Shown here: in pieces, positions 4,346-54,160 of the stretch
Layout: the number at the start of each line of letters is the position of its first letter
Numbering within the stretch: the stretch's first letter is position 1
NCBI GenBank assembly: GCA_003990765.1
Contig: RBNJ01000019.1
Location: 1-54,197 of the forward strand
DNA from: Jimgerdemannia flammicorona
Lineage: Eukaryota
Length of the DNA stretch: 54,197 nucleotides
Direction of reading: 5' to 3'
The notes under the pieces: model-generated
What the model was told of the DNA's origin: nothing
Seen by the model: the letters and a program-made list of their open reading frames with translations, nothing else
The model's database searches: none
Position numbers and translations under genes: made by a program

Positions 4346-8723
<4,378 letters not shown>

Positions 8724-10606: not shown

Positions 10607-11008
10607 TTTATTCATCCATAATGTACACTTCCATCATTTCTTGTTTTGGTCATCTCTTTCTGGTTTTGCTGGACATCTTCCAACTACTATTTGAGCATCG
10701 AAACTGGAAATCGGAGCTGCGCGATTCGAGATACTTCGCTGATTGTAGAGGTTAGCACAAAGAAATAAACTTGGCTGATGAAAAGGAGGGCGGAGACAGG
10801 AAAATGACAAATATCTGTTGTATGCAGACTACGACCGTGGTTTTGAAACCTTTCATGACCTCGATACCCAGCACTCTCAAGCAGAGGCTCGACTTCGTTC
10901 CGAATATGAGGAATCATCCAAGCGCAGTCAGCAATAAGATATGCGACGAACGTCATCCTAGCTTATGTAGTTTATTGAAAAACACAAGTAATCTATACAA
11001 ATGTCGAT

Positions 11009-17439: not shown

Positions 17440-20400
17440 ATGAGTTCCTTTTTGCTCAAACTCTTGGATGAGGTCTTGGGAGTTCTTGAGATTGGCAGCA
17501 GGTTCCCAGGTAGTATCATATTCAGGGTAACCCATCCACTTGACTAGATATTCTGTGCAATGATATTGGACTTGCTTGTCTAAGATTTTCTCAACTTTAT
17601 ACTCGATGTGGTCTTCAACTATAACTGGTACTGATAGTGTCAGAATTTGGCTAGGATATAGAGGTGACTGGTTCTAGGCCTTGAGTTATGACATATGGAA
17701 TACTGGGTGTATATGTATGGTTGTTGACAAGTTAAGGCAGTAAGACCAGGTAGAGACTTGCTCGGTGATCTCAAAGAGTCCAAGATACTTGGGCTGACTG
17801 GTGGTTGACTTGAGATTGAGCCTTAATGTTATTGGCTTTGAGTAGAACCATATCACTAATATTGTATACATATAACATCTCACTACTTCTTATCTGCATA
17901 CTTAGCTTAATGTTGCTGAGCCTTTTGCAGGTTTGTAGTAGTGATCTTGAGAAGGGAATCCATTTTGTTGATAAGGTTCTGGGCTGTGGGGACTTGTGTG
18001 TGACTGGATTGCTGAAATGAGACTAGGCTTGCAGAGGTCTTGGGGTTTTGACTGTGAAGTAGCTAAAATGGGGAAAGGCCAGTTGATAATTAGTTGGCAT
18101 TGTTATAGGCAAACTCAGCATAGGTCAGATAGTGGTCCCAATCATCTTGCTCATAAGACACATAGTTTCTAAGCATTTGTTCAAGTATTCTGTTCATTTG
18201 CTTTGTCTGTCCATCAGTTTGAGAATGAAAGACAGTGGACATAGCAATTTGGGTTCCAAGGGTCTTGAAGAGTGCTTGCCAGAAGTAACTTGTGAACTTG
18301 GGATCATGATCACTGATAATTATCTGGGGAAGTCCATAATGGCAGAAGATAGTCTTGAAGAAGATTCTTGCAATTTCTGGGACAGTGGCATTGGTTGTAG
18401 TTGGCTTGACAATTGTAATCTTGGTGAGACAGTCCACAAACACAACAATAGCATCATAGCTTGTTTTAGTTCATGGGAGTTGTACAATGAAGTCCATTGT
18501 GACTTGTTCGAACTTCTTGGTCGAAATTGACAAGGGTTGTAGAAGACTAGTGGGTGCTTGATTGCTTGACTTATTTCTTTGGTAAAGATCACAGCTTTGG
18601 ACATACTCCTTGATTTCCTTGAGCATGTTTGGCCAGTAGTAGTCTTGTTGGATATTTTTGATAGTCTTCTCAGTTCCAAGGTGACCAGCTAGTGGGGAGT
18701 CATGATGTTCATGAAGAATTTTGTACTATAGTTCAGGGTTGGCAGGAATATATACTTTGTCTTGATAGTACATGAGATTGTCCTTGATGGTGTACTTTTT
18801 CTTGAATTCCTTGGTATTCTTTTATAGAACCAGAGAGTCTTGTTCATATGCTTTCTTGATCTGATTGAGGAATTCAGGTGCCATGGTGACTTGTAAGATC
18901 ATGGCAAGATTAGGTCTTTTTGATAGTATATCTGGTATAACTAGAGTTTTGCCAGACTTGTAGATAATGTTTGGGGTAAAGGTCTGAAGTAGTTGACTCT
19001 ACTTGGCTTGTTGGCAAGAAAGGGTTGGTTGAGTGTTGATGTACTGAAGGGGCCTGTAATCAGTGATCACATTGAACTCAACTTCTTCTAGATAGTATCA
19101 CCAAGTCTTGAGGGCATGTATGATTACCAGGAGTTCCTTTTCATGATTAGCCAGCTTTTGTTCCACTGGAGACAATTTTCTTGACTCAAAGGCAATAGGT
19201 CAGTGTCCTTGACCATCATCTTGAGAAATAACTACACCAATAGCAAAGTTAGATACATCTATAGTGACCATGAACTTCAAGTTTGAGTCTATGTTTCTCA
19301 GGACAGGTGCATGGGTCAGGTGGTTCTTGAGTTCTTGAAAAGCTTGTTGACAGAAAGCATTCCAAATGTAGGAGACATAGAGGTCAGAGTTGGGTTCCTT
19401 TCACAGGAGGTTTGTTAAAGATTCTGCAATACTAGAGAAGTTCTTGACAAATTGATGATAGTATCCAACCAGACCAAGGAAGGACCTGAGTTCAGTGAGG
19501 TTTGCTGGTACAGACTATTGTTCAATGGCTTGTATTTTTCTTGGGTCTACTTGGATTCCTTTGGCTGATACAATGTGTCTAAGATATTCGACTTGATTCT
19601 TGAAAAATTCACATTTTTTGAGCTTTGTATAGAGCTTGTTCTCATGGAGGATCTTGAGGACTTGTTCAATATGCTTGAGGTGTTCTTCTTCAGTACTACT
19701 GAAGATCAGGATGTCATCAATGTATATGAGTACAAAGATATAGAGCTGATCCTTAAAGACAGTTTGTATGAGATCTTAAAAGATTACTGGCACATTGGTG
19801 AGACCAAAGACCATAACTAGAAATTTGTAGAGTCCAAAGGGTGTCATGAAGGCAGTCTTGGGTATGTCTTCTGGTTTGATTCGAATTTGGTAATACCCAG
19901 AAGTGAGATCAATCTTGGTGAAGTACTTTGCATTTTTGAGAGCATTAAAGATTTGATCTATGAGTGGTAGTGAGTAATGGTTCTTGACTGTGATCTTGTT
20001 GAGTGCTTGGTAGTCTATGCACATTTGCAGAGTATAATTCTTTTTCTTAACAAATAGGACTGGGGAACCAAAGGGTGACTTGCTTGGCTGAATGGCTCCT
20101 TGCTCAATGAGTTTATTGAGTTCCTTCTTGACTGCTTCAATTTTGAGTAGAGATACATATGTGGTACATTTTCTTCTTAGGTATAGCTGTATCAGGTATC
20201 AACTTGATTTCATAGTCATGGTCTCTTGAAGGTGGTAGACCAGGTAGTTTGTCTGGGAAGACATCCTTGTACTTGTTCAGCAGTAACTTAATGCTTTCAC
20301 TAATTGATAGCTTCTTGTCTTCTTTCTTTGGTCAGATCAGTGCCACAAAGGCACAGGTAGCTTTCTTGAGGGCCTTCTTGAACTGAATTGCTGAAAGGGT

Positions 20401-22268
20401 AGCAATTGGGGCTCTTGTCTGAGTCTTGTCTGGCTTGATGGTAATGTTGGCTCCATCCTGAATCAAGGTGACTTCATTCTTGGTCCAATCAATCTGAGAG
20501 TTATGCCATATAAGCCAGAGTTTGCCTAGGATTAGGTCATGGTCTCCTAGTGGTGCTACCTCAAAATCTAAATGTTCCCAGTACTTCTGGATCTTGAGGG
20601 GAAGTTTAGTGGCAATTGAGTCAATTGGTAAGGTGGTGCCATCTGCAGTGACAACTCCACCATTCTTGTCAGCTGGTTTGATAAGAATCTTGAGCTTATC
20701 AATGAGGTTCTTGTTGATGAAGTTCCCAATAGCTCCACTGTCTATGAGAATATCTAGTTCTTGTCTCTTGACTAGACCTTTGAAAATGAGCATTGAATTG
20801 ACTCAGTTCTCAGCTATACTTGCAATTTTATCAGTGCTACCAAAGCCTTTCTGATCTCACTTGGTTGAAGACAGCTTGGTGACTTCTTTGATGACTGGTA
20901 GGGTGGCTCACTCCAGAATGAGCTGTGCAATTCTGTCTCCTTCATTGACAGTGTATGGTTGGTTCTTATAGTTGACTAGCAGGACTTACATTTTACCTTG
21001 GAAGTCAGGGTCAATGACTCCAGTGCCAACATCCAATGAGTGCTTGAAACTGAGGCCAGATCTTGGTGCAATTCTTGCATAATGTTTCTTAGAGATTTCA
21101 ACTGAAAGGCCAGTTGAGATGAGCCTTCTTTCATATACAGGAATAGTGACTTGTTGTACTGCTTGAAGGTCCAAACCAATGGCTTCTTCTGACTGTGCTT
21201 GAGAGATCTGGGCCTTGGGGTTGACTCACATGAAATTGAGTATGACTTCTTGTTTACTGATTGACCTTGAGTGTATTTGGACAGGACTAGGATCCTCTTT
21301 GGTTTGGCAGTTTTCTTGGGACATTTAGTTGCAATGTAACCAGGCTGACAGCAAAATAAGTAGGCTCTAGCCTTCTTGAGGTGCTTCTTTTCCTTGGATG
21401 TAAGCTTGCCTTTCTTATTCTTGTCAATGGTGTCTAAGTCCATGAGGGCGGGTCCAACAGTTCTGACTTTGGGTTCCTCCCTTTTGTGATTGCTGTTGAA
21501 AAGCAGTCTCTTCTGTTCAAAGTGGTAACCATAGGTGATAACATCAAACCTATTAGCAATCTTCATTGCTGTATCTAGGTCTCTGGGTTCTTCTAGTTTG
21601 ACACGAACTTGGGTTTGATCTTTCAGACCTCAGATATACTTATCAACCTTCTTGTCTTCAGTAATATGTGGTAATTCTAGCAGAATTGACAAGAATTGTA
21701 TATTGTATACTTACACAGACTTGAGTTGTTTGACATTTGCCAGATGGTCTTGCGTGGCCTTGGTGCTGTTGACTGGTTTGAATTGGCCTTGAATAGCATC
21801 AGAGAATTTACCCCAGGTCTTGATTTGGTCAGAGAATCTGGTATTCTGGACATAATTTCACCATCAGATTGCAGCATTCTCTCAGAGGAGTGTGGCAGTG
21901 AATTGGACTAGTATTGCTTCTTCCAAATTGGTCAGTTCTCTGTATTGCTCTAATTGGAAAAACCAGGCATCAGTAGACAGTCCTCCTCTTTGACCATCAA
22001 AAGTGTCAGACTTCTGAGGCTTGATAGTGACTGCTGTCAGGTATATTGATGTCAGTAGAGGTGTAGAGATATAAGCAGGGGCCTTGCTTTCCTTTCTTTC
22101 TATACATTCTTGAAGTTGAGCAATCTGAGCTAATGCAGTCTACAAAAGACTCTCGATGGCCCCATTTGACTGAGTAGGGTTTTGCTGTTCCTCTTCTTCT
22201 TACTAATTATATGAGGCATTGCCTGGACCATAGGTACTGTATGAAGGGTTCCACCTGTTGTCCTCCAT
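17440..22268 (-). pseudogene. gag-pol of element B: gag, CCHC knuckle, dUTPase, aspartic protease, RT, RNase H, integrase, chromodomain; many in-frame stops
   Basis: Knuckle remnant YLFCCQPGYIATKCP; protease [51 protein letters not shown]; integrase MDFIVQLP, VD(R)LTK, QTDGQT; chromodomain EYKVEKILDK..EYLVKWMGYPEYDTTWEPAANL (~17450-17620). Confidence 0.92.
20835..21235 (-). pseudogene. dUTPase domain of element B
   Basis: All five trimeric dUTPase motifs in order: IGLDL, ARIAPRSGLS, GVIDPDFQG, GDRIAQLI, (R)DQKGFGST. Confidence 0.9.
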
Positions 22269-35959: not shown

Positions 35960-38027
35960 TATAAGAGAGTTACTTATTAGGGTAACTGTTACATAATTCT
36001 GGAAGGGTTTTTCTAGAAGTTCTGAATATTCTGGAAGACTGTTTTCTTTAGGTCAAGATCAATTTCATATAGAGTATATCCTCTATACTTATTGATTTCA
36101 AGATTAGATTGATACCTCAACCAAAGTTCTTTTTTGGACTAGTTCTGAATTTTCAGGATTATCTGTATTTCAGGAAGTTTAAGAAACTAAGACCAGTTTA
36201 GTTGAATTAGCATATTGCTACAGACAATATCTAATTAAAAAATTTTGTGATAGGGTTAGGAGTGTGATCTAACAGAGAGTAGATTTACTTATGAGTAGTT
36301 TGTAGATTATTAAATAGGTTTATTTACTATTTATGATATTGCTATACTAGGAGTAGTTGTATGAAAAGATATTATGAAAAAGTGTTCAGAAGTTATATTC
36401 AGATGTTCTGTATATTTAAGTCTATTTAAGTCTAAGATTCTGAGATCTGGGGGAGGGGGTATTTATACTAATGGGAGGCTCTCTGGACTATGCTAAATAT
36501 GGATATAGCACTTAGTGCCTTGCTGAGTCAGAATGCAGTTACATAGTATAAGTGTGATCTGATATGTCAAGAGATCATCTGACTGCTGAGTCAGTTTACA
36601 GTCATATCATATATATAAAACTAATCTAACTATACTAATGACTGCTAGACTATCTATAGATTTAGATACTGTCTGGGTAGTCTTCAATGATATCACTATC
36701 AATGATATCATCTTTGATGAAGTAGTTATCTAGGAAAAGTAGTTCTCAGATTACTTTTTTCTATTTACTGAGATAATAATACATTGGAACTTTATTACTA
36801 TTTTACAGAATAGTATCATCTGTCTCATATGCTGGATAAAGAGTTGGTGGATGAAGGAGGGGTATATTGTCTTCACTTTCATCAGATTCGCTATCTGTGT
36901 ACCTTCTATAGATTATAGTGCTATGTGTCACTAAGTTGTAGTAAGCTGGTAACTGTTATTCATATTGCTCATACTTGGGTAGTAGAGTTGTCAGTTTGAT
37001 TTCAAGAGTTGTCTGGAGATATAGGTTATATTCTCTGGTCTCTTTATTATAGGTGAAGTAATTGGGAGTAAATTCAAGTTGGTACTTATGTCAGTAGTCA
37101 TTATCTCAATAGGTCTTATAGGTGGTTATGAACTGTTATAAGTTTATTAGTAAGATTGGTGGAGTGATCAGAGTTGGTAGGAATTTTTAGCTTAAGGTCA
37201 TGTCAGCATAGAGGGATCATTATCTTCTGCTTCATTATTATCAAACTAGATTATATATATTATAGATATTCTTCATAGTATATTCAACTTGGGGCATTTG
37301 CAAGATATGGTCATTGGAGTGTGAGAAGGTTCTGTCTATAGTTTGAATATACTCAATATACTTGTGGTTGAGTTTTTATACCATATTGTTGATTTGGCCA
37401 TAGGATAGAGTAGCAATCATTTCAGTAGTAGTAACTCAGAGGTAGGGAATAAAGGTGCTGTACTTATAGAAGAGTTCTTGATATTTATAAGCAATAAGTT
37501 TCTAGTATTGAGACATCTGGATAATATCTGTATCATAGTAGTATTCAATTATATCTTCTAGGAGACAGTCAATCTAGTAGTAGCTTGAGATTTGTCTGAT
37601 GTAGTGGGCTTTGCTAAACATATTTAGGGTATTCTATCAGACTTTTACAAAGTAGAGAGGTGTGAGACTATAGATATTCATAAGGGGTAGAGGGGGTGTG
37701 GCTTGGTTGATAATGGTATTCTAAATATCAGCATGGACATGGTTGTAGATCTCAGTGATCATATTTGTATATATATTTAGAGTTAGGATTGTTTATTTAG
37801 TTTATTGTAATTCTCTGTTTTGACACATCTGAGTGCTTAGTATATATATATTTGGTCCTAATTAGTAAGATTTCATTTATATGAATCTTGTATTTTATAA
37901 CTTTGAGTTGACTCAACTTTGTATACTATGACTTTAGTTTGACTCAGCTTCATGATCTTATATATGATTTCCAGATTTGTTTAGAGGTGACATATTATTT
38001 TAGTGGCTTAGAGATTATGTACTTATA
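35960..38027 (-). repeat. Uninterrupted 5' LTR of A1 (2068 bp)
   Basis: Matches 14900-16134 + 16291-16720 + 22745-23070 after removing the two insertions. Confidence 0.9.
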
Positions 38028-38053
38028 GCTATACTCACTGGAAAGCTCATCAA

Positions 38054-38240
38054 TGAGCAGGTGGAGATAGTGAATGACAAAGTAGTCTTTTGTTAAGAGA
38101 GGGTGTAGGGGGGAGGGGAGAGGGGGGCCCTAGGGGAATTGGTTAGGGGTGGGCACAGTGTAATATATATTATATAGATGAGTATATTAATAAAGAAAGG
38201 AGTCTGAGTGACTATAAAAAAAAAAAAAAAAAAAAAAAAA
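38054..38240 (+). mobile_element. Short 5'-truncated L1/Tx1-like LINE stub related to the element at 47.4-53.2 kb
   Basis: G-rich body, AATAAA and ..GACTAT-poly(A), like 53117-53176. 13-bp TSD GAAAGCTCA(T/C)CAA at 38041-38053 and 38241-38253. Confidence 0.8.
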
Positions 38241-39352
38241 GAAAGCTCACCAAAGCTCAGAGGATCCCACTACAAGTACTAAATAACCTATAGGTAATCT
38301 ATACTGGTACTTGATACCCAAGGTCAGCTGATATCCTATATAGCTTATAAAATACCAAGATAATACTTTATTGATGATGGTAAAAAGAAGAAGATGCTAC
38401 ACTAAAATAAATATATCTCAAATATAGATGAAGGTACCAGAAACTGTGAAAAAGTAGAGAAGACACTGATTCAATACTGATAAAGGGATAACTTATCACT
38501 ATTGCCTTTCCCCTACCATGCTTTTGTGAGCACAATAAACCAATCTAAGGTAGAGAGTAATAATAGAGAAAAGGAGACTTAGAAGGTGCCTATCAAATCT
38601 TGTGACTAGTAAGGTAGCAGAGAAAGGAGTATTGATTAGATTATAATCTCTAAAAGATGTAACTTTAAAATTTATTTATTTTTAATATTTTTATATTTTA
38701 ATAAAAATTTAATTAAATTTTAATTCTTGTCACTAAGGTATGCTAATTTGGCTGTAAAAAAAAATTGAAGTTTATTTGAGTATCTTAAAGTATAGGGCCT
38801 ATTATGACTAAATAGACCCAGATTAAGACCTTTTTTGAGAATCAGTAAGATCTTAATCATCTTCTTAATAATCATATTTTCTATAGCTTATATGTATATA
38901 TATAAATTTGTATAACTGAGTTTTTTATATAATGTTATCTTCTTCTTCTACTTCATCTGCCTTATCTGCTCCTAATACTCCTATATCTATATCAGCTACT
39001 ACTATTATGTATCAGATAGTATAACTATACTCTTACTGTTATCTTCTTGTTTAGCTAAGCCATTGCTTACTTATAGTATTCTAAATAGATAGAATTGATC
39101 CAGATAAGATTCAATTCAGATTTGTCATATAATAGATTCAAATTAACTTCGATTGATCTTGTGATCTGGATTAATTTATCTGGATTGATCCATCCAGATT
39201 GATTATATAAAATCTTTAATGACATCACTCTTTCTTTTGTTCATTTTTTACTCTGATTTTTTTTCCTACTACACTTTGGTGATATCACTCTTTCTTTTAT
39301 TCTCTCTCTTCTTTTGTTCTTTTTCTTTGTTCTTTTTCTTTTCTGCCATATT

Positions 39353-41550
39353 ATGAGTAAACAAAACAATAGTTCTTAGTCATATATTGATCTAGTCTAC
39401 TCATTTTTTTTACCCTATAATAATTATCAAAAGAGGGAATATTTGAGGTAAAAATATACTCTCTGCTGACAATGTTAGATTCTTTCTCATATAGAAGCAT
39501 ACAAGCTACTCATTGAGAGCTAAAGGAGTAATAGTGGTAGTAATGGTGGTAGTAATAGTAATGGCAGTGGCAATAGTAGAGATGAGAGAGAATTCTAGCA
39601 ACAACTTATAGTGGCCCTTTGGACCTCAGAATTTACAGACCTCACAGCTATATATATATGTGACAGCCTTTTTGGAGCAGCCAATAGTAGATATAGGTTA
39701 CTCATTCTGCTACTACTTGTTTACTTATATTTACTTTTTTAATTTTCTCCAATATGACCCAATTTACCTTGTACTTTTTTTAGAGTCCACAGCTCTATAG
39801 TGAGATCTGCCAACTTTATTCACAATGTTTAGTCAAGATGAAGAAAGGCTGGTAGATATTATGGGGCATATCTTTGGCAGCTGAGTTGTTGAGTCAATAT
39901 ATCATATGGCAGAGATCTCAAAAGGAATAGAAGCAAGCCTTCATGAGTAATGTTGTATAACTCATATAACTCATTGGCATACAACTTACTCACTTATACT
40001 CTTTTTCTGAAATACTTATCTTCATATTTTATTTAACTTTATTGTCTTCTCTAAAAATACCTACATGACATCTGTATGCAATCTGTCCACATACAATCTG
40101 TCTGTATACAACTCATCTATATGTAACTCATCTACACATAACCCATTTATATATAACCTATCTGTATACAACCCATCTACACACAACCTGTCTGCACATA
40201 ACCCATCTGTATACAACTCATCTGTATACAACTTATCTACACATAACCTATCTATATGCAACCCATCTGTATACTTATCTCAGCCCCTCATATCAGAACT
40301 CAGTTCTATTGAAAAGAAGAGTTCAAAGTTATCTGAGTTCAACCATATCTGGCATCTGATCAAATAGAGAAATTTGAGGGCAAGATGTTCAGTATGAGTA
40401 GTACCAGTATCATAATCAAGGCTTGGAGGTCTATATTTAAATCAGAGCTAATCATTCTCAATCAAGGGATTCATTGGCCAGCAGGAGTAATCAATGATAA
40501 AGAGAACTACATCATTATTAATAACTATAGAGAGGTAATTGTGATGGTGGTAAGAAATCTCTATAGTGATGAGCTTTGCTATCACATCAATGAGATTTGT
40601 AAGAATTGTATCAAATATCAGATGGCAGGAAAGAGGGGGCAAAAAAAGCAAGGAGGGGGGGTTTGGATGAAAATTGGGTATACTGCAACACTAGCAAAGA
40701 GTGGGTTCTGGAGTTCTGAAATCCCCTGCACTCATCTCTCTTTTTTTTTTTTCTTCTCTCCAGATAATCACTCTCTTTGCCAACATACTCTTTTTGATAC
40801 AATTCTAGAGATGCATAAGATTCTGTATCTCTACCAGAACTTTAGAAGTGCTATCAAAGAGCAAACTATGCACAAGTACAATATGGTCTGTGCAGCAATA
40901 GTGGCTATAATCTGAGGTTCTTTGAGCAGATTAGTAGAGTATATAGTAGGCCAGCTTAGTGGTGATCTCAGTGTAGCTGTATGTATATTCTTGGTGCAAT
41001 TTAGCATACTATATAAGGTGGGGAGCTCTACTTTTTTGATACTATAGCCTGGGGAGTTTCTGTAGCCTGGGGGTTTCTGTCCCCCCACATGCAAAAAGAA
41101 CTGACTGGATGCTATTTGTTTTAGCAGATTTCTAAGCCAGGGCTTCTAGGGCTGGACTAAGGGCAGATATCCACTGGTACAACCTGATAGTATGAGGTCC
41201 TGGGCTAAGGATTCACTCAACTATATACTCATATCACATCAGGATACATTAGGCACAATATTTCTCTACCCATATACACAGATAACAACATCACTCTAGT
41301 AATGTTTTATGTTCTGGAAAGGAAGGGCCCAACTTGGGAAGATAGTGGTGAAGTCTGGTACAATCTCACCTACAGTTTCAGGGTCCCATTTGTGGTCAAC
41401 ATGGTAATCCTATTCTAACCACACAACTACCATAGTACCATTATCTTCAAGGAGAGCTCAGACATCATAGTTATTGTACTCACAATAGATGACAGACTCA
41501 TTAAGGCCTGGAACTGGTAGGTGGAGTAGTTTTTGTAAGAGTTAGATAAT
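39353..41550 (+). pseudogene. Decayed multi-exon cargo gene; C-terminal half resembles a TET/JBP-like 2OG-Fe(II) dioxygenase
   Basis: Exon-like blocks at 40385-40700, 40764-40885 and 41125-41520. YIIINNYREVIV and KRG..GGGVWMKIGY are followed by NISLPI-YTD (HxD after one C>T reversal, 41275-41283), SGEVW and VILF.P..YHST. Assignment is by eye only and the final 2OG-binding Arg is not evident. Confidence 0.45.
40065..40275 (+). repeat. 15-bp tandem minisatellite (~14 units, consensus ACAACCCATCTGTAT; reads NPSVY/H)
   Basis: Directly visible; open as pentapeptide repeats on both strands. Confidence 0.9.
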
Positions 41551-41786
41551 CTTTTATGAGGGTTTAACAGTCATTTTGTATAGGTTGAGCAGTCTTTTGT
41601 AGAGGATTGGGCTGACAGCCAGACACCTCTTCTGTAGCACTAGTTTAGCCATTATGCTGGGCCCTTGGCTCTGCTCTATAGTACAGTACTGCAGCACAGG
41701 GCCAGAGTGTCTATAGAACCTGAACTGGTGACAGGGCCTGAATCTGTGGTGGACTTTGACTGTTAGAAGTATGTATCCTCCAACCA

Positions 41787-41845
41787 CCAGAAGTACCCTC
41801 TGACTACCAGAAGTACCTTCTGACTACTAGAAGTACCCTCTAATC
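41787..41845. repeat. 20-bp tandem repeat x3 (CCAGAAGTACCCTCTGACTA)
   Basis: Directly visible. Confidence 0.85.
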
Positions 41846-41864
41846 TGAACTCAGACTCTTTAGT

Positions 41865-42345
41865 GGCTTGGAGTTACCCCTTTACTACTGATAGAGGGCT
41901 GCAAATTTTGTATATTCTCTCTACCAACCCCACCAACCCCTGGCCCAGGCATAGACTGCTTGGAAGTATTCTATACTGCTTGATAGAGGGCCACAAATTT
42001 TGCATGCTCCCTCTACCTACTCTGCTCCCTCTGCTAACCTTCCTATTCTAGATACTTGTAGCTTAGGACTACCTCTTGCTGTCAGTAGAGGACTGCAAAT
42101 TTTGCACACTTTCTCCACCAACCCTACACCCACTGACCCTGCCCACTGACCTGGGCACTGACAGCTTGGAGCTGCCCCTTGCTGCTGGAAGAGGGCTGCA
42201 AATTTTGCCCACTCTCTCCACCAACCCTGTACTCACTGACCCTGCCCACTGATCTGGATACTGATAGCTTGAGACTGCCCCTTACTGCTGGTAGAGGGTT
42301 GCAAATTTTGCATACTCCCTCTACTACCACCAACTCCACTGACCA
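41865..42345. repeat. About five ~95-103-bp tandem units with core GAGGGCTGCAAATTTTGC
   Basis: The core recurs at ~41895, 41988, 42090, 42192 and 42295. Confidence 0.85.
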
Positions 42346-42489
42346 CTGCTCCACTTGGCCTACAAACTTCAGACCAAGTTTTAAGTTTTTTTTTTCCTTT
42401 TTATTTTTGAAAAAGTATTAAATAATCCACAAGGCCAATTAATTAATCCATGAACCCTAAGATCTGTCAAATTTTAGTGATCTAAGCTC

Positions 42490-44950
42490 TACTAAGATTT
42501 CAGACATATATATATCCAGATTGTCTCAGTATTCAACATACACCTCTTAGGGGCAACAAGATCCACCCTACCTAAGAATACTCACTTGATAGGAGCACTG
42601 ATGGCAGGAATCATCAGATAGTCTCAAGTCATATCATATAGACTGAGGAAGTCCATTTGATATAGCTGTAGCCATATGCTCTAGTGGGTAGAGCAGTGGT
42701 TAGAATGATAGGTAGAGTAGTAGTTAGAATGATAGTTAGGTTGGTAGATTAAATTGGCTCAATGCAACCAACTACCTGCCTGACAACCTACCTTCCACCA
42801 GTTGAGTACTTCTATACTCTCTAGCAGGATTACACAGTTACTAGTGAGATAAATAGTGAGTTCATTTATTGATAGTAGCTCTTTTACTGATAGCTCTCTC
42901 TTCCTCTTTCTGCTGAAGTAAATATAGGACAGGAGAAATCTCTTAGCATATTCATCCAGACTTTGACCAGAACCTTATAGTGGCATGTAGTTTTTCTGGT
43001 ATATTTCAATTATGGCCTACTTATTTCCCTTGATGAACTGCTACTCTTAGCCCTAATCTTTATAGTATTGTAGCTTTAAGTATAGGTCTAGCACTATTCA
43101 GAGAAAGAAGAGGAGCAATAGCCACATACCAATATATCTGTACTAATTGAGTATATGGCAGTATCTGTTTTATAGTAGTATTTTCTGAGCTTGCTTAGAG
43201 CAACCTTTATGGTATCTCTCTGATTTGGACTTAACTATAAATCACTGCAATTCTTTAGTCTATCCTCAAGCTTATCCTTTAGCTAGTCAATCAGAAGGTT
43301 GTATACTGATATTGCAGAGCTTATTATTGGAGTCATTTGTTTGACTATATCCTTTGTATAATTATTGAAATACTGGCAGTTATGTGTAGTGAGGTATTAT
43401 ATTATATAGAGGCAGACAAAATAAGTGTGGGGTCAAAGCAATCACTACTTACTTTTAAAACTCTAACAACATTCCTAAGTATATCCTACTCACTTTCACC
43501 TAGAGCCTCACTCTGCATTTCTTTGTCAGCAGCAACTATTGAATCTATTGGCTTTTTGTTTTGTTTTTTTTTTTTTAAAAAAAAAAAAATCTTTAATCAT
43601 CTGAAACAAGTTGCTTCAGCTGACTAAAGAAAAGGATATATACTATAGCAAACTCCAGCATATACTGGATCATTATAAATGTTGAGTTCCAATACATACA
43701 GATATCCAATATAAGCTCTTTCAGAGCTTAGTGAATTTATCTTATCATTGTGAAGATGATTAGACCAATACAACTAGTTTGCATAGCTTGGAAACTATAC
43801 TCAGAACCTCTTCTCTCTTGGATGTTTTGTCTATATGTGTAAGATAGTCCTGAACAGTGAGGTTCAGTATATGGGCCTAGTATTGTATATATTAGCTTTC
43901 TGCACTGAAGGCTACATTTTCCTATTTGAGACTAGCTACTAAAACTTGAAAAAATGTTGAGTTATTTGTGGTATTGTCCATCATAATGACCAAAATCTAT
44001 ACTTAAATTATTTGGTCAACAAATTTATATAAAAATAAATAACTAATAAAATCTATTTTATTTTAGAATTTCTCTCAAAATGCCAACCTGATGGCAAGTC
44101 TCTCTTTTTTACCTTAGTTGTAATCCTAAGCTCCTGAATATAACTAATAAAAGCATCTGTAATATTATCTCCAGAATGAGGGCCAACAAGTTTGACAAAG
44201 TCAAGAGTGAGAGATTTAAGCTACCAATTGAGGTCAATTTAATAACCAGTAATACCCAGAAATGAAATTACATTGTGAGATATCTAAGTATTGATTGTAA
44301 ATAAAATTTTACCTGCCAAATTCTGCTTATTGAATATGAGATTAAATTGGTGAGGTCTTTATAAATATATATATATAATTTAGCTTGCAAAGGTCATAGT
44401 GCTGCCCTTATTTATTTATTTTACCTGAAGTATCTGGCAGAGATTATTATACTCCTTCCTATAGGCCTCTAGGACATTTTTGCAAATAGTATCAGTACTT
44501 GGCAAATATAAATCATACTTAAGGAGACCAAAGATACTATGTAATTGATCACTCTCAATGATTGTGAATAGCTGGTCTATATATACAATCTAGCAAATGA
44601 GCTGATTTCAAAATTCTGCTAAAGAGTATGATTAAATATTTTTGATTAAATAGAGTTGTTGGTATAGAAATAGTCAGGCAATTGGATAAATGTACCCACT
44701 ATAGCTTGGATATTGATTTTATTTATCTTTATGTTCTTTTTGATTTTGTTAGAGTACTTGTATTTTATATATATGTCAATATATGTTCAAAGTCAAACTA
44801 CCAAGCATTTTGAACTTCTGGCTATGCAGTTTATGAGGATGGATGAAACAGTATCATGTGTGTGTCAAATAAAGTATCAGTTATATTATAGGTATATCTT
44901 TTTTTTTTTTTTTAATTTTTTATCTACAATAGTTATAAATAATATCATCT
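42490..44950 (-). pseudogene. hAT transposase (Ac/Tam3-like), intron-containing, decayed; 5' limit approximate
   Basis: FTI(D)T(W)..FLGITG..IDLNW, LTLDFVKLVGPHSGDNI, MDNTTNN, AHILNLTVQ, LDI..WNSTFIMI, VLD(P), and dimerization domain DYLMIPAISAPI.(R)VF..LVAPKRC.LN.ETI..CLKS. Confidence 0.9.
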
Positions 44951-45149
44951 TCTATCTTAGCACAATATTGTCAGATTTCAGAGCAAGGATTGTATGGAAG
45001 GTGTGGAACTATTGAGAATATTTAACTTAAAGCATCATTGGTACTATAAACTATTGAAGACTAATCTGTTGATATATATTTACATGTATATGCATGTGTA
45101 TTTGCATGTATATATATTGTATATATAGATATATCTAACATATGAGTCA

Positions 45150-45520
45150 TATGAAGGATTTAGATTAGAGAATTCAGATTGGAGGATTCAGATTAGAGGA
45201 TTCAGTTGAAGGATTTAGATAAGGATTTGGATTGAAGAATTTAGATTGAATGATTCAAATTAGAAGATTTAAATTAGAGGATTCAGATTGATTGAGTAAT
45301 TCAGATTGAGTAATTCAGATTGAGTAATTTAGATTGAATAATTCAGATTGAGTGATTTAGATGAGGTGGTTTAGATAGAGTAATTTGGATGAGTAATTTA
45401 GATAGGGCAATTCAGATAGGATAATTCAGATTAATCTGAGTTGATTTAGATAGCTTCAGATTTGAGATTCAGATCAAACCATCATATAATAAATCAAATC
45501 CAAATTTGATTTGAATTGAC
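45150..45520. repeat. hAT subterminal repeat array (GATTCAGATT; 14-bp unit GAGTAATTCAGATT)
   Basis: More than 20 degenerate units just inside the right TIR; a shorter counterpart lies at 39085-39205. Confidence 0.8.
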
Positions 45521-45543
45521 TTGTTCAGAGCATTACTTACTCA

Positions 45544-47380
45544 TCTTCATTATTTGAAGCTATTGCTGACTCATCCTTGTTATCTCAGGCTATTGTCAGC
45601 TCTTTCTGATCTTTGTCTACCTAAGTTATTATTACTCTATTCTTGTCCACCCAAGTTGTTGTCAGCTCATTATCAGCTTTCTTTATAGATAAGTATAATA
45701 TTCCTGTTTATATCCTCCTTAGTTACTTATATATAAGTATTTTGAAAAGTTTTCTTAAACAAATAAATAGCAAATTACCTAAAGGAGCAGTTATACAAGT
45801 TTCTTGGGCTTAGAAATAGTAGTTTAGTGATAAATATTTAAGATTCTATCACTATTTGTAAGGATCTGAAGTTTTGAAAATCAATTATAAATATGATAAA
45901 GCACTTAGATATATAAACTGAACTATATCTGAGAAGTCTTTTAAGAATTACACATGTAACAATTGTTGTTATAAGATCTGAAGACCTTTCAAAAATACTT
46001 CTTTATAAGCAGATATGCTTGAATCCATCAAAACAACTGAGCCATTATTAATAGTAATACAGATTACCTCAAGTATACCCACTCTTACTATTATTCCTTG
46101 AGTGAAGAATATTGTAGAGACTGTTCATCAATAGGAGGATAGAATAATCAAGTAACTTATAGATCTATACTGCAATATAGCTAATTGAAATATTTTTAAA
46201 AATATAGTTTCTAAATATAAAATAAGGATCAATTTATTTAAAATGAGTAAAAATTGATAGGAATTATTAATAAACTATATATTTTAGTAGAAAAAATGTT
46301 AAATTGTGCTAATTTCTCAAATTCTTTACATTATTCTTAAATTATAGTATCTGTATGAATAATATATTAGTTATTAAAGTAATATAGATCAATTTGTTAT
46401 AGCATGTTCAGATACTGATGCAAATAGACAAAGAATTATATAAAGTATCAAAAAGATGATAGATAAATTAAAAGAATATAACAATCATAATAAGTGAGTA
46501 TAATTGAGTGAAGATTAAATAAATATAATATATATATATATATTACTCTTATCAATATAATTTCAATTTATCTTATAATAGATAAGAATAAATACTGTAA
46601 TTAATATAGCTATCAATGTATGAGTTCAATAAGATGAGGTTAAAGATCATATAGATATACTTAGTAATTTAGCTGAAGAAGAAGCCATTGATAATTTAAA
46701 TTGAAAATTTCTAGCTCTTATTGATATTGCTCAAGGTAATCTTAATAATGATGATTATGAAGAACTCTTTATAGTAGATTATATCTCTCTTATACAAAAG
46801 TAAGAGGTTTATGATATTAGTATAGTTATAGTGAAAAACTATAATTAATAAGTAATTATTTCTAATATATATTGATATATATATATCAGACTTCTTATTT
46901 ATTATTATTATTATATATTTTAGAATCATTAAAGTCTATACTATTTTTCATCAAGAATGTAATCCTAAGTTTAATCTCACCTTTTTAATAAAAGGTACTC
47001 TAGGCTATATTTATATATATATTTATAAAAAATATTATTTTGAGAATTAAAAGAATACTAATAAAAAGGTTATTGAATGTGAAAAAAAATCTATAAGTAT
47101 TTAAATATATGTAATTCATTGATGTGTTCAATAATAAAAAATACTGATATCTTCTTTATATATATAGTATTCTCTTATTATGATAATTTAATCAGTAATT
47201 AGCAAATATTACTATGATTTATATAACTGTGGTAACTAACAATGAAATTTGAGCTATATAGAGAAGAAATATATAAGTAATCTATCATTATCTACCAAAG
47301 TTAGTAGATATATATGGAGTCTATATAAGTATAAGGTACAAGTAGGTAATAGTACTGAATCTGTTCAAGCATTGATAAGT
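45544..47380 (-). other. Extremely AT-rich decayed coding-like remnant that hosts the hAT (continues at ~38652-39073); family not identifiable
   Basis: The sequence joins across the hAT TSD. The minus strand shows acidic repeats and codon-like structure but no recognisable motif. Confidence 0.3.
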
Positions 47381-47559
47381 AATAATATGAACGGACCTTT
47401 CACCAGTAATATTCGGGTGACACAAGACTCAGACAGCACTTTTTATAACATTTTTGGTGTCTGACGACTAACAACATAGATGGCAACGATCAAACTAGTG
47501 AGTGTAGTGGCGGTGCCTTTGGCTGGCAGCAGGTGGAGAGGAGGGGAGATGGTTTGGGG

Positions 47560-49380
47560 ATGCCAGGGGCCTCGATGGCTAGCCGAGGCCCCAGCAGCAG
47601 AGGGAGGGGAGGTCTGAGGCAGAGAGGAGGGGAGAGGTCGACCTTTGCTGACAAGGTCAGATTGGGGAAGATGGCTTCTGGGCTGGATAGTTGGCTGGGC
47701 CTGGAGAAGGCATCAATGGCTACTGCTGGAGGTCAGGGAGGTGCACCCCAGGGTACTTCTGGTAGTAGGGAAGGGGCCAGAGTAGGGGCTGGAGATGTGA
47801 CTGTTGATGGGGCTGTGACTGGGGATCTGGCAAAAAATCCAGATGTGATGGTGATTGGCAATTTGGGACTTGGAGTAGGCACGAGGCCTGGGGACCTGGC
47901 AGATGGGGTGATGGGCATGGTGTCGGCCCTGTTACTCAAGAAGTCAAGGTCCGAATTCATGGTCACAATGTGCTTTCAGGGCTTGGCAGTAATGGCGAGG
48001 ATGATTTTGGGGCTGGTAGTGCAGGAGGCTAAGGGAGCAGCATCGGTGAAGTTCTTGAGGGGAAAGGAAGGGGTTGAGGTGGGGTTTGAGGAGGAAGATG
48101 CCTTGTTGGCAGCCATGGAGAAGGGGGTGATGGTTGGTGGGGTTGTGGTCCCTATGGCCCGGTGTATGTGCTGGGACCCCTGGGTGGTGCAGTTGACAGT
48201 GTTGGACCTTCCTATGGTGTCGAAGGAAAGGACCAGGGAGTTGGTTGTGGAGGTGATCAAGGAGTATGGTGAGATTGTGGATGTTGGGTTCAAGGTCTGG
48301 AAGGGCATGGAGCTTAGAACCAAAGACGTCGATGTCAGAGTGAGACTGGCTGGAAAGGAGAATATGGGGAAGTCGAGGGACTGGCCAGCAGTACTGAGGT
48401 GGGGACCAGTGGAGTGTAAGGTCACTAGGGTGAAGGGGACTCAGGAGGAGGAGGAGGATCTGTTGGAGGCTCTGGAGGACCTGGAAGGGGCAGTTGCAAG
48501 GAGGAGATTAGCCTGGAAGGAGTTTGAGGCCAGGACGGTGGTGGGGGAGGTGGATGGAAAGAGGGTTCGGATGGAGAAGGGAGCCTAGGAGAAGATGCAG
48601 GGGAGGAGGATTCAGAAGGAGTTGTTGGCGAGGTTGGGTGGGGATAGGGCTGGTGGAAGCTCTGGGGAGGGGGCTGCAGGGTTGCAGGAGAGTGCCTGGG
48701 CTGAAGGGGGAGAGATGGCCCAGGGCGGGGCTCAGATTGGAGTTGGGGAGGGGAGGGAGGATATCTTGGAGGTGGATGCTGAAATGGGCGAAGGTGGGTG
48801 CCCTCAGTATAGTGTTCCAAATGGAGCAGGAGGTGAGGAGGAGCTGATGGATGTGCCAGATGAGGAGTGGGATGAGTCAGTGCGGAGGAGTGCACTGGTA
48901 GACCCCAAGGTGGACAGGGGACAAATTGCTCAGGGGGCGGCAGAGGCAGTAGATGAGGAGAAGTGGATGTGGAAGACTCTGGAAGGGGTAGTGGCTAAAG
49001 AGCTGGGGGGTGAGGACTTCAGGGTGATGGAGGAGAGGCATTGGGAGGAGATTCTACATGGGGAAGAGGTGTCAAGGAAGATGAGGAATGAGATCCTGGC
49101 TGTCCTCTTGGAGTCTGTTGAGTATCAGGTTGATGATCAGTGTGAGGAGGAGCTTAGAAGGATTGCAAGTGACAGGGCACTTGTCTTGTGGAACTCGAGG
49201 AAGGGACTAAAGAAGTGGTGCATGGTCTGCTTGGATTATAGGGCAGATATGGAGGAGGTGGACAGGGTAGAGTGTCAGGAAATCTTGGGGGCACTAGATG
49301 CATGGGATATTACAGAGGGTGAATTGGAGGCTGAGCAGCTCTTGGACTTGGCGAGGGATGAGATGAGCATGGAATTATAG
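47560..49380 (+). pseudogene. LINE ORF1 (RRM-like middle, acidic C-terminus) with one in-frame TAG at 48586-48588
   Basis: ORFs 47533-48588 and 48595-49380 are in the same frame. RSTFADKV and VLDLP..VIKEYGEIVDV are ORF1-like, and it lies directly upstream of ORF2. Confidence 0.8.
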
Positions 49381-49411
49381 GTTGAGGTCTCTTCTACAAT
49401 ATCTACTCAAT

Positions 49412-52400
49412 ATGAATAGTATAACTAGGATATTCTCATTGAACGTTAATGGGCTACGGGGGGTGGCTAGGAGGAAGTACATCTTTGGCTGGCTTCAGGG
49501 TCTGGATGCGGACCTCTTCTTGTTGCAGGATGTTCGGTATGATGCCGATGTAGATTTACAGGATTGGACTAAGGAATGGGGGGGTGTGGCAGTTTGGCAG
49601 GGGAAAGTGGGTATTCTTGTCCAGAAAGGGATGGGGGACATTGGGGACATTGGACATTGGGGGTCGCGGGTGGTGTGGGGAGTGTGGAAGAGGCCTGGGT
49701 GGGGCTCGCTGATGGTTGGGTCTTGTTACTGTCTGGCTGAGAGAGGGGAGAGGGTGGATTGGATTTGCAGATTGAAAGAGGCTGGTATATTGGGAGAAGT
49801 TGGGTTTGACTATATGGGGGGGGACTTCAACATGGTGCGGGATAAGGAGCTGGACAGAACTGATGGTGGGAGAGGCATGCGAGGTGAAAGTGGTGGGTTG
49901 GCAGACTGGTTGGAGATGGAAAGGTTGTGTTCTTTAGTGGACTCAGGGAGACATTTTTGGGCTAATCGGCGGATGTATACCCATTGGGCAGCAGGACTGG
50001 GCTCTAGGATTGACTGGGTTCTAACAGCAGAGTGTTGGGGAGCAGATGTCTGGACAGTGCTGAGAGTTGTATGGTATCCATGGTCTGATCACTGGGGGTT
50101 GCTTGGAGGGGGGCAGTTTGGGGGAAATGAGGATGGACTCGGACATTGGTGGCTAAATTCATCCTTACTGGAGGATAGGGCATTGTGGGAGGGTTGGGAA
50201 ACAGAGGTGGTTGGAGATATCGGCAGGTGGCGGGATCAAGGACTGGCAATTGGGGACCACTGGAGAAGGTTGAAGGTGAAGGCTCAGGGGTATTGGAGAG
50301 AGGCGGGGAAAGGAAAGAGTACTCAGCGAAGGCAGCGGGTGATGTGGGCCTCGCGGCGTTTGGTGGCGCTCATGGAGAGATGGGCAGGTGTGCTGGAGGA
50401 TAGGGCCGTGACTGATTGGTGTATTGTGAGAATCCAGCAGGAGGTGGGGGAGCTCAAAGGGGTGCTACGGAGGGAGGAAGAGGAGCAGCTGCAGGGGATG
50501 GTGGCCCGCTTGTGATGGCAGGGGCTTGAGGAAGGGGAGAGACCTACCAGGTTCTTGTCGCGGTTGTTACAAGCATGACGAACGAGGCAGTGGTGGGAGG
50601 GAGTTTTGGATGAGAATGGCAAGCTGGTGGTGAGGACCCTGGCAATTTTGGGCCTATTGTGATCCCAGTGGGGGAACCTTTGGAGTGAGGACAAAGGAGG
50701 ACTAGATGCTCCGGACATTGAAAGGCAGCTGGGGGATTGGCACCCGGACCCTGCCATGGGACTTGTGGAGTTGGGGGACCCAGTGAGCGGTGAGGAGATT
50801 TGTAAGGTGGTGGCCTCTACGAGTAAAGGGACAGCCCTGGGAGAGGATGGACTCCCCTGGGATTTTTGGCAGAAGATGACAGGGGTGCATGAGGTACTGG
50901 AGGAAATGATGGCTATGTGTGATGAAGTTCTTCGGTCTGGTGCTTGGATTGGGGGACAGTGCTTGGGGCTGGTCTCCTTGCTATATAAGAACAAGGGCAG
51001 GAGGGAGGATTGGAAGAACTGGTGGCCGATCATGCTTCTGGACATGGACCGCAAACTGGTGACGAAGATCTTGGTGTTGTGGTTACAAGGGATTGCACAG
51101 CAGGTGATTGGTTTGGAGCAATGTGGGTTTGTCGGTGGTCAGTTGATTCGAGATGGGATGGCCTAGGTTCATGGAGTAATTGAAGGTGCCTGGGCTACCA
51201 GGGTGGATGGCAGATTAGTATTTCTGGACCAGGAGAAGGCTTATGATAGAGTGTGGAGAATATGGCTGGAGAGAGTGCTGAAGCAGATTGGTATCCCCCC
51301 AGGGTTCCGAGGTTCATTGATCAGCCTCTTGGAGGACAGTCAGATGGTATTGGTCATCAATGGCCACTGGGGGGTAACCTTCCCCCTGGGTCGTGGGGTG
51401 CCACAAGGGGACCCCTTGTCACCCATATTGTATGCTCTTTCCCTGGAGCCACTACTGGACAGGATTCAGCATAAGATTGGGGGTTTGGACATTTTAGGGG
51501 TGAACTGAAAGGTGGGGGCCTTCACTGATGATATGGTGGTCGGACTGGGTTCCTTGGGGGATGTTGGCGAATTGCAGAGGACAGTGGAATGGTATGAGCA
51601 GGGTTCTGGTGCCAAACTGAACTGGCACAAATGTGAGATGCTGGTGCTGGGTGCTGGAATTATCGGTGGCGATGTTATTGGAATGGTGGTTCCAGCTGGT
51701 GAACCAGTGCACTACTTGGGAATCTACTTCTCGGTGTTCGGATCTCTTCTTCTCCAGGCATAGTGGGACCGTAAACTGCTGGAGTGGGGCGATGTCTTGA
51801 TGCGATGGGGAGGCTGGCATATGTCCCTTGCCGGAAGGGTGATGGTGTTGAATGTGTACTGGATGCTGAAGCTATGGTATCACCAGGCCCTCAGACATAA
51901 AAGCCGCTTAGTAAAGTCCACTAAGCCCAGTCCACCACTCTCCAAGGGCAGTGTGAGCACCTCCCAACCAACCTGGCTCTGCTGCCCTCCCCAAATCCAT
52001 GACCTCGCCATCTTCAGCAACCTCGTAACCACCCATGGTAGAAAATCCAAATGATATCCAATACTAAGGAGGGTGAGTGAGCTCAGAGGTCGGGAGTGGG
52101 TGCCACTCATGCAGAGGCTGTGGGAGGTTCGATACTCCCCACATGGTAGCTCTGGTGATCTGCTTGCAATGGTGGCCATAGAAGGGAGCCGGAGGATGCG
52201 GTTTACAGGCTTTTGGTGGGGAGCAGTAGATGGTGCTAAGAAAATTGGCCTTCGGTGGTGAGGTGATAAGGCCGAGGAGATTTGGGGACTGCAGATGTGG
52301 AGATGGGACAGGCTCCTATTGGGTGGTGCTCTGGTGGAGGACTTTCAGCTTGGCGAGGATCTGGAGTGCCTGCGAGGCCTAGGTGGAGACCTGTGGCCTG

Positions 52401-53074
52401 AAGCCTGGCAGAGGGTTGGAATCGGGAAAGAGTGGGATTGGAATGGGCTCTGGCTTTGGAGCAAATGGGTGAGGCAGTGGCTGCCCCCTAAGTTCTGGTT
52501 GGCATGGTGGCAGATCCTATGGCAGAATGTGATGCTGAACTATCAGTCTGGTCACTTGGTGGATGGTGGGGTATTCAAGTGTGAGAATTGTTTCAATGTT
52601 GGTCAGGAGGGAGGGGTGGTATAAACACCTGAACATTGGCTTGGAGAGTGTGAGGTTTTGGGGGAGTTTTGGGGATGTATAAGGGACAGGTTAGGGTTGG
52701 GGGCTGGGGGAGGGGAGGGAGGGGGGAGATGGGGAGAGCTTTGCTGGCGACTAGTGGGTGGGGTTGGGGACGAATGGCTGACCCTTGGCTGAGCCTTAGC
52801 TATGTGGGTTGGGTTGGCGGAGCATTGGGTATATGTATTTGAGGATGGGTGTCGGGTTGTGGTTGATGAAAAGGTGGCATAGTGGGAATGGTTGCTGTTG
52901 GACATTTTGAATAGCTGGTGGCGGGGTAGAGGTATGGGTGGGGGGTACCGCAGGGGTTTGGTGCAGTGTATCTCCCAGAAGAGTGGTGGAAGGGTTCAGG
53001 TAGTGGGTGGTCAGGTGGTGCTTGGGCAGGGGGAGGTTGAGGGAGGGGGGTTGGGCCCCCGGGGCATTGGTTGA
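49412..53074 (+). pseudogene. LINE ORF2 (APE endonuclease, reverse transcriptase, C-terminal CCHC); single frame broken only by nonsense codons and one inversion
   Basis: APE: SLNVNGL, GGDFN, SRIDWVL, SDH. RT: GEDGLP, NW(R)PI.LL, QCGFV, LDQEKAYDRV, GVPQGDPLSPILY, FTDD, SGAKLN..K, YLG. CENC..EHWLGEC. All fragments start at positions congruent mod 3. Confidence 0.93.
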
Positions 53075-53138
53075 AGGGGTGGGTGACATTATATTGTTAA
53101 CACTATAGACTTCGGTAATAAAGGGCAGTCCAAGAGAC

Positions 53139-53176
<38 letters not shown>

Positions 53177-53178
<2 letters not shown>

Positions 53179-54160
53179 AGTATCAAGTAATGAAGAAAGT
53201 ACACAAACAAGGATACCTAGGAGGAATCAACACATATGATAAGGTAAGAAGAACTATGTAGTGGCTCAAGATAGAAGAAGACCTGTGCCAATTTGTCAAA
53301 GGATGTGACAAGTACCAAAAACAGAAATAAGATCAGCAAGACTAGGCACCTGGGTTATCAAGAATTGAGCCTATCCTCTTCCACCACATTACAATGGATA
53401 TTATTGGGCCACTACTAGTAATACTATCAGGAAACTACTATATTATAGTTATTATAGACCTCTTTACCAAATAGATAGAAGCAGGAGTATTATAAGAAGC
53501 CAATGTCCTCTCTATAGCTAACTTTCTATATTGAGAAATCATCTGCTGCTATAAGATACTAAAGCAAATCACTACAGACTACAGCATAGAATTTGTCAAT
53601 AGATTCTATGAGATAATATATCTGAAATACAAGATTCAGCACATCAAGACCATCACATACCATCCTCAAGGAAATAGACAGAGAGAATCAACAAGACCCT
53701 CAAGAATATTCTGACAAAGATCTCAGACATATACGAGAATTGGGATAACTTCCTCCCAACTACCCTCTCTGTTTTATGAGATATATGATCACAGAGCACA
53801 CACTTTACCCCAAAAGAACTGCTCTTTGGAGAAGAAGATTCTGATAGAACCTCAGCTACAAATCTGGACCTAACTTAGAGATAAGTTGACTTAGAAATCT
53901 GGAGACTATACCAAATCAGGAAGAAGGCTGAAGATTATATCATCAAGTCACAAGCACTGACAAGAAAGAATACAGAAAAGAATCACAAACCCCTAGAACT
54001 TATCCAAATTAGAGAAAAGGTCCTACTGTATTGAAATATAGTAGAAGCCTCATAGTTATGAAAACTGGAGCCCAAATGGGAAGGACTCTTCTATATACAA
54101 GATATCAAGAGAACTACTTTCTGGCTTAGAAAAATCTCAGAGACTATACTACCTACCACA
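53177..54160 (+). pseudogene. Decayed Ty3/Gypsy integrase of a third family (zinc-binding, core and GPY/F regions)
   Basis: VHKQG(H)LG..CDK(C)QK, ITMDIIGPL..SGN.YIIV.IDLFTK.IEA, EIICCY, ITTD.S.EF.N, TYHPQGN, EKVLLY..KLEPKWEG(P). Confidence 0.88.

Follow-up and report, generated by a model that had tools for sequence, protein, structure and literature searches.

A decayed hAT copy in Jimgerdemannia flammicorona that probably carried a convergent gene for a divergent TET/JBP-like dioxygenase

Positions 1-54,197 of contig RBNJ01000019.1 of Jimgerdemannia flammicorona (assembly GCA_003990765.1), a stretch referred to below as the window, contain two convergent gene relics, a hAT-like transposase on the minus strand and a second, multi-exon gene on the plus strand. 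The questions raised by this locus are whether the two belonged to one transposon and what the second gene encoded. A preliminary description, made from the raw sequence, had read the second gene as a TET/JBP-like DNA-base dioxygenase carried as cargo by the hAT element and had been aware of no earlier example of the pairing; such pairing is, in fact, already described for Puccinia in the account of TET-carrying transposons by Kojima (2025, Biology (Basel) 14:1741, PMC12730594). Our analysis indicates that the region 39074-45535 is probably one dead autonomous hAT copy, whose convergent three-exon passenger encoded a divergent TET/JBP-like dioxygenase of the Fe(II)/2-oxoglutarate type.

Judged by homology, the plus-strand relic is a real, convergent, three-exon gene. 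The first exon lacks stop codons, and three proteins align with it in tblastn: P0005 (E 9e-26, 40361-40711), P0006 (4e-11), and P0007 (2e-10, 40478-40699). The same three proteins were the only ones to reach E<=0.001 when the read-through of 40337-41101, with X at the stops, was compared by HMMER with all 1,835,955,588 proteins of the library (3.6e-19, 1.1e-4, and 1.3e-4, respectively). P0007 (374 amino acids) covers exon 1 and exon 3 of the window in colinear order: its residues 238-356 match 41143-41496 at E 5e-9, in an exon that has accumulated five in-frame stops ahead of its natural end. Between them, MHKILYLYQNFR of the window aligns with MHSCITPYRNFK of protein P0008 and of the metagenome contig L001, with a similarity score of 33-34 that was reached in 3 of 300 shuffles. 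Since exon 2 is recognizable, the first intron can be placed at 40701-40808, the same point at which the gene of L001 is interrupted; short GT...AG introns are present in the window. The preliminary description had drawn the gene at approximately 39353-41550. Its multi-exon, convergent character stands, and homology supports the span 40361-41496, but none was found for the 5' extension 39353-40336.

The family to which this gene belongs is small, and the relatives found here come from metagenome and run assemblies. In the word-index protein search, P0008 was the only match of P0007, and P0007 the only match of the profile A1, while the uninterrupted 192-amino-acid frame of the window yielded no match among longer proteins in this index and no usable match in the ESM Atlas. 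Two metagenome contigs were reached through P0007. L001 holds an intact three-exon gene, and in L002, which is 99.0% identical to L001 over 2717 nt, the gene is broken by two premature stops; such a difference would be expected if the element exists in several copies. Both contigs (L001, 1-3666; L002, 1-2870) have normal CpG content, with an observed-to-expected ratio of 1.2. Open frames at 2320-2945 of L001, downstream of the gene, have no Pfam match, and short repeats lie near both contig ends. No relatives of the gene were found in the genome-contig and viral-contig collections.

The relatives reveal the residues that this copy has lost. Four of them (P0007, P0008, L001, and L002) cover the catalytic region, and all four have both H-V-D and H-G-[ST]-T, that is, the HxD/E...H metal-binding triad found in the TET/JBP family. 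The window segment Y-T-D-N-N-I-T-L-V (Y-T-D at 41275-41283) corresponds to H-V-D-x-D-[VL]-T-P-V of the relatives, D-S-G-E-V-W-Y-N (DSGE at 41341-41352) to D-[SG]-G-G-x-F-Y-N, Y-S-F-R-V to Y-G-x-G-V, and H-S-T-I, with the distal His at 41431-41433, to H-G-[ST]-T. Thus, the Asp and the distal His are retained, and the first His is now Tyr (TAC at 41275). The preliminary description had quoted the last-exon translation exactly and, by undoing C>T and G>A changes, had restored a His, a Gly-Gly, and a His-Gly-Thr, all of which agree with the residues of the relatives. It had also named a consensus with Tyr at 41275-41277 as evidence against its reading; the column holds His in 4/4 covering relatives.

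The same direction of change is seen beyond these motifs. The alignment of exon 3 with its relatives comprises 129 columns, 49 identical to a relative and 80 differing, and undoing C>T and G>A alone accounts for 31 of the 80 mismatches, versus 11 and 13 for transversions with equal opportunity and 5 for the forward direction. The excess is less marked in exon 1, where reversal explains 30 of 67 mismatches versus 23 and 17 in the transversion controls and 6 in the forward direction. The codons of several other decayed Gly and Asp residues (41287, 41374, and 41380) were formerly parts of CpG sites across codon junctions, while the change of His to Tyr (TAC for CAC, 41275) and that of Gly to Glu (GAA for GGA, 41350) are transitions outside CpG context; hence CpG deamination is not the whole cause of decay. 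Within the element, one CG dinucleotide remains of 199.5 expected, in the left subterminal region at about 39149-39150; in the 32-kb repeat block at 14001-46000, 20 remain of 956 expected. The loss of all but one CpG indicates that methylation and mutation affected this copy as they did the block around it. Both genes of the element are destroyed, and the passenger in this copy is a pseudogene.

A probable relic of the hAT transposase that the preliminary description had placed on the minus strand was also recovered. Its coding sequence is scattered over three frames with many stops (from approximately 45000 down to 42480), and the only transposase family matched is the hAT C-terminal dimerization domain (PF05699, Dimer_Tnp_hAT; E 0.0015, 18.7 bits), found at residues 828-887 of the read-through of a decayed frame starting at 45158. 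By eye, the minus-strand translation contains the motifs DNTTNN, AHILNLTVQD (43847-43876), WNSTF, and NWWK, which we take to be hAT-like. Transposase read-throughs gave no Pfam or PDB sequence match to the RNase H-like DDE catalytic core and no hAT match among PDB sequences. The assignment to hAT is based on the Pfam match, the 8-bp duplication, the structure of the ends, and these hAT-like motifs.

Both genes are enclosed by one pair of ends, and the subterminal motif of these ends is almost confined to them. The terminal inverted repeats, taken as 20 nt each, are identical at 11/20 positions and agree at 19/20 in purine/pyrimidine class, so that all but one of the 9 mismatches are transitions. 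Among 4,000,000 pairs of left and right positions assessed by a duplication of at least 7/8 together with the inverted-end score, 39074/45535 ranks at the top. The preliminary description of one end pair around both genes largely holds; the 8-bp duplication described with it proved imperfect: CTTACTTA and CTTACTCA match at 7/8 positions, and the single mismatch is a transition. Fixing the right end at 45535 and scanning 15,400 positions returned 39074 as the best left partner. The end score of the pair is equalled by one internal subterminal pair. Moving the right end to 45532 gives a perfect 7-bp duplication, TTACTTA, but brings the inverted ends out of register (7/20). Within 37000-47500, the motif RATTYRRAT has 3 copies in 39100-39399 and 24 in 45100-45699, with just 3 in the remainder; on the right, the 14-nt unit AGGATTCAGATTGG is repeated about 15 times in 45155-45362, and the array runs on to 45432. 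An ordinary inverted-repeat search was swamped by A/T runs. A left end at 40915, with 18/20 agreement at the purine/pyrimidine level, was considered and rejected, as it has no duplication and would split the plus-strand gene in two. The insertion site itself (39040-39073 and 45536-45690) consists of degenerate tandem repeats, whose units of about 30 nt start gctattg or gttatta.

Several of these features weigh against a single hAT element. The Dimer_Tnp_hAT score is under the Pfam cut-off of 21.4 bits. The inverted ends become visible only if transitions are forgiven. If 39074 is taken as the left end, two positions in the repetitive right flank, 45631 and 45661, score as high as 45535, and the resemblance of the ~30-nt flank repeat to the duplication makes the latter cheaper and less certain. 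Finally, joint mobility of the cargo and the transposase is presumed from one decayed copy. An explanation by two elements, in which the dioxygenase-like gene came from another transposon or from a decayed host gene, lay by accident beside or within a hAT element, and 39074 is not the end of this element, draws on the single decayed copy, the tied right ends, and the repetitive flank, on the identity of the ends at 11 of 20 positions, and on the absence of hAT sequence from the 2.9-3.7 kb of L001 and L002. It seems unlikely, however, because 39100-39399 and 45100-45699 have a subterminal motif in common that is nearly missing from the sequence between and beyond them, and because 39074 is the single best partner of 45535. 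Further, the search for ends revealed no other pair enclosing the gene, and section 4.1 of Kojima (2025) describes the TET genes inside transposons as having no ends or duplications of their own. We therefore retain the single-element structure; its features are listed in Table 1.

Table 1. Features of the putative hAT element and of the host part of the window (1-14000); positions refer to the window.
Feature	Position	Strand	Basis or remark
Left duplication copy, putative, CTTACTTA	39066..39073	.	7/8 match to CTTACTCA at 45536-45543
Left terminal inverted repeat, TAGTATTCTAAAT...	39074..39093	+	paired with reverse complement of 45516-45535
Left subterminal region with RATTYRRAT copies	39094..39220	.	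motif counts; carries the only CpG of the element
Tandem array of a 15-nt unit (11.5 copies) shortly before the passenger gene	40101..40273	.	Tandem Repeats Finder
Exon 1 of the TET/JBP-like relic; open frame begins at 40337	40361..40700	+	tblastn of relatives
Intron 1, GT...AG, 108 nt	40701..40808	+	homology resumes at 40811
Exon 2, 3' end approximate	40809..40940	+	similarity to L001 and P0008; in-frame TGA 40916-40918
Exon 3, decayed catalytic core	41143..41520	+	tblastn, P0007
Tandem repeat of a 103-nt unit (2.6 copies) separating the convergent genes	42085..42355	.	Tandem Repeats Finder
hAT transposase relic, 5' limit approximate	42480..45000	-	three-frame translation
hAT C-terminal dimerization domain relic	42498..42677	-	Pfam PF05699 Dimer_Tnp_hAT
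Right subterminal array, 14-nt unit AGGATTCAGATTGG	45155..45432	.	Tandem Repeats Finder; motif counts
Right terminal inverted repeat, reverse complement TAATGCTCTGAAC...	45516..45535	-	paired with 39074..39093
Right duplication copy, putative, CTTACTCA	45536..45543	.	7/8 match to CTTACTTA
NPR2 host gene fragment	2735-3295	-	E 2.8e-36
WD40 repeat protein, host gene fragment	11009-11440	-	within the part of normal CpG content

The second question is what the passenger encoded. Three independent, individually weak tests (a profile comparison, language-model neighbours, and the predicted fold) favour the TET/JBP-like reading of the preliminary description, and we assign the family to this class with reasonably good confidence. 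In the first test, the fungal family was compared by hhalign with seven phage proteins around gp2 of Mycobacterium phage Cooper, all of which match Pfam Tet_JBP; Cooper gp2 serves as a TET/JBP representative in the Figure 7 legend of Kojima (2025). A single alignment of 97 columns was obtained, which places HxD on HRD and HG[ST]T on HGVTP, with the Gly-rich turn likewise in register. Its score of 24.3 (P 0.02) compares with 18.6 for the reversed decoy, and none of 100 column shuffles reached it (maximum 23.1).

In the second test, the first ESM Atlas cluster retrieved with P0007 (score 0.96, 211/256 features) is from Basidiomycota, in line with the fungal character of the nearest clusters of the relatives. 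PF20515 (2OG-FeII_Oxy_6), which we take to be a JBP1/TET-type oxygenase domain, is present in 15% of the members of this first cluster; a literature search on PF20515 found no paper. A viral Tet_JBP cluster follows at rank 11. In the third test, VIA-align was used to compare the second of two AlphaFold2 models of P0007, with a mean predicted local distance difference test (pLDDT) value of 38.1, with 48,161 representative chains. For this low-confidence model, NgTET1 was at rank 1 (Z 7.2, 186 residues aligned, root-mean-square deviation 4.6), followed by CcTet (rank 2, Z 5.7), TET2 (rank 3, 5.7), and CMD1 (rank 5, 5.3), and at least 40 of the 50 rows listed are, by title, oxygenases of the Fe/2-oxoglutarate type. 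The weight of this list would lie in which chains lead it and not in the Z values.

Each test has its counterweight, and the checks by Pfam and by structure prediction with Foldseek that the preliminary description had proposed both gave no significant match. At E<=10, neither the window frames of the gene nor P0005-P0008 nor the exons of L001 matched a Pfam family, Tet_JBP (PF12851) and 2OG-FeII_Oxy_6 (PF20515) included, and PDB sequences searched with profiles A1 and A3 yielded nothing at the same threshold; a search of PHROGs retrieved nothing meaningful. The HH-suite probability of the hhalign alignment is 2.3%. The 2-oxoglutarate-binding Arg located 15 residues after the distal His, which is invariant in the phage set (Arg236), is replaced by Ser, Ser, and Thr in P0007, P0008, and L001, respectively. 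The ESM recognition value of P0007 (2137) is under the 2300 mark of the tool. Both AlphaFold2 models are poor (mean pLDDT 36.8 with 6 alignment rows and 38.1 with 9), too poor for residue-level claims, so that the fold matches rest on a model graded unreliable; Foldseek with the P0007 model found no PDB match at E<=0.001, and a Z of 7.2 is inside the range often reached by unmatched models. As to Pfam, a match does not define divergent fungal members, since HHpred was likewise required for the PU and PE types described by Kojima (2025). The Figure 7 legend of that paper gives H, D/E, and H alone as conserved across fungal TET types; the Arg is absent from the residues common to all of them.

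Could the passenger be another oxygenase of the 2-oxoglutarate/Fe(II) type, for example a hydroxylase of proteins or small molecules, or a repair enzyme resembling AlkB? A role against methylation would then fall away. The missing Tet_JBP match in Pfam and the missing Arg fit this possibility, as do the best, non-significant Foldseek rows, which are prolyl hydroxylases, and the fact that OGFOD1, ACC oxidase, and prolyl hydroxylases score less than 2 Z units from NgTET1. We nevertheless regard it as improbable. Predicted structure puts members of the TET/JBP family at ranks 1, 2, 3, and 5 of the 48,161 chains, and the same four (CMD1, CcTET, NgTET, and TET2) are named by Kojima (2025) as closest to the PU and PE types; Tet_JBP, the sole profile compared, aligned the triad in register; and the Atlas neighbours carry 2OG-FeII_Oxy_6 and Tet_JBP. 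That the plus-strand gene consists of chance open frames in AT-rich decayed DNA, as the missing Pfam match and the isolation of the 192-amino-acid frame in the ESM Atlas and the word index might suggest, is refuted by the homologue at E 3.6e-19 in the whole library, the colinear matches in two exons, the shared intron position, and the intact relative L001.

Within the TET/JBP-like assignment, a more specific reading can be put forward tentatively, although we find it rather doubtful. The passenger may belong to a separate, undescribed TET/JBP-like lineage distinct from the PU, AG, and PE types, lacking the canonical 2-oxoglutarate Arg and perhaps using another co-substrate, which was captured independently, in convergent orientation, by a hAT with 8-bp duplications outside Puccinia. 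Use of another co-substrate has been reported for CMD1. If correct, this reading would add an eighth independent route of capture.

The life of such an element can be pictured by analogy with known systems. Once bound to the inverted ends and to the 14-nt subterminal repeats, the transposase would have carried out cut-and-paste transposition, presumably mobilizing the cargo together with the hAT. The dioxygenase may have acted on the DNA of the element, oxidizing 5-methylcytosine or some related modified base; such oxidation would have countered silencing by methylation and delayed the methylation-driven C-to-T decay of CpG sites. The present copy would then have lost the race, its catalytic His being now Tyr and its CpG gone.

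The surroundings of the element are of two kinds. In the host part (1-14000), CpG content is normal (753 CG observed versus 715 expected), and the transition to the CpG-free repeat block, near 14 kb, is abrupt. The block contains the relic of a long terminal repeat (LTR) retrotransposon on the minus strand (19776-20802; RVP_2, E 1.4e-9, and RVT_1, E 1.4e-13). No second copy of the hAT element was found in the window. On the other side, the plus strand of 47400-53200 has a G+C content of 0.54, strong G skew, and long open frames, one of them with an Exo_endo_phos endonuclease domain (E 1.6e-7). CpG is partly depleted there (97 CG versus 338 expected), and this region looks like a younger non-LTR retrotransposon resembling long interspersed nuclear elements (LINE-like).

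If the preferred reading of one hAT copy with a TET/JBP-like passenger is correct, the locus provides one more independent sighting of a DNA transposon carrying a demethylase-like enzyme, in a hAT layout that differs from the published ones. It also illustrates the losing side in the arms race, as the copy, despite its cargo, has been deprived of the catalytic His and of 199 of the roughly 200 CpG sites expected. The invisibility of the family of relatives to Pfam suggests that annotation pipelines undercount such genes. On the methodological side, a reading of the raw sequence with C>T changes undone predicted residues that were later confirmed in the relatives.

PU-type TET/JBP dioxygenases of Pucciniomycetes were reportedly first noted by Iyer and co-workers in 2014. 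In our search of the literature on hAT transposons with TET dioxygenases in rusts, the single relevant paper found was that of Kojima (2025; PMC12730594), which reports TET-carrying transposons of eleven lineages in fungi, including 20 TET-carrying hAT families across six Puccinia species, and proposes that the TET enzymes work against silencing by methylation and against the C-to-T hypermutation of CG sites. Thus, the pairing of hAT with a TET/JBP-like gene and the anti-silencing proposal are already in print. The likeness, as known from the published description, lies in a hAT that carries a TET/JBP-like gene besides the transposase, in the C-to-T decay at CG sites of host repeats, and in the same proposed role, an escape from methylation-based silencing. 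As described there, the Puccinia families make 7-bp duplications ("hAT7"), whereas 8 bp fits best here, and 7 bp would need ends out of register. In the three hAT7 families named, the TET gene precedes the transposase and shares its orientation, whereas the genes are convergent in our element.

At the level of the protein, the family resembles the PU type, as presented in that paper, in being a fungal transposon-borne TET/JBP-like protein recognizable by sensitive methods (HHpred or structure) only, and resembles both PU and PE types in the four nearest structures, with the reservation that ours come from a low-confidence model. With CcTET, an AG-type TET of Kyakuja in Coprinopsis cinerea, it shares transposon association, the HxD...H triad, and, for the low-confidence model, a fold match (7vpn_A, Z 5.7); it differs in the transposon superfamily, as Kyakuja has no inverted ends, and in sequence, HMMER against PDB sequences having given no similarity. 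The phage Tet_JBP proteins, i.e., Cooper gp2 and its relatives, are weakly similar (P 0.02) and keep the Arg at the position where the present family has Ser or Thr. What is distinct in the J. flammicorona element is the convergent layout, probably the 8-bp duplication, and a set of relatives unseen by Pfam.

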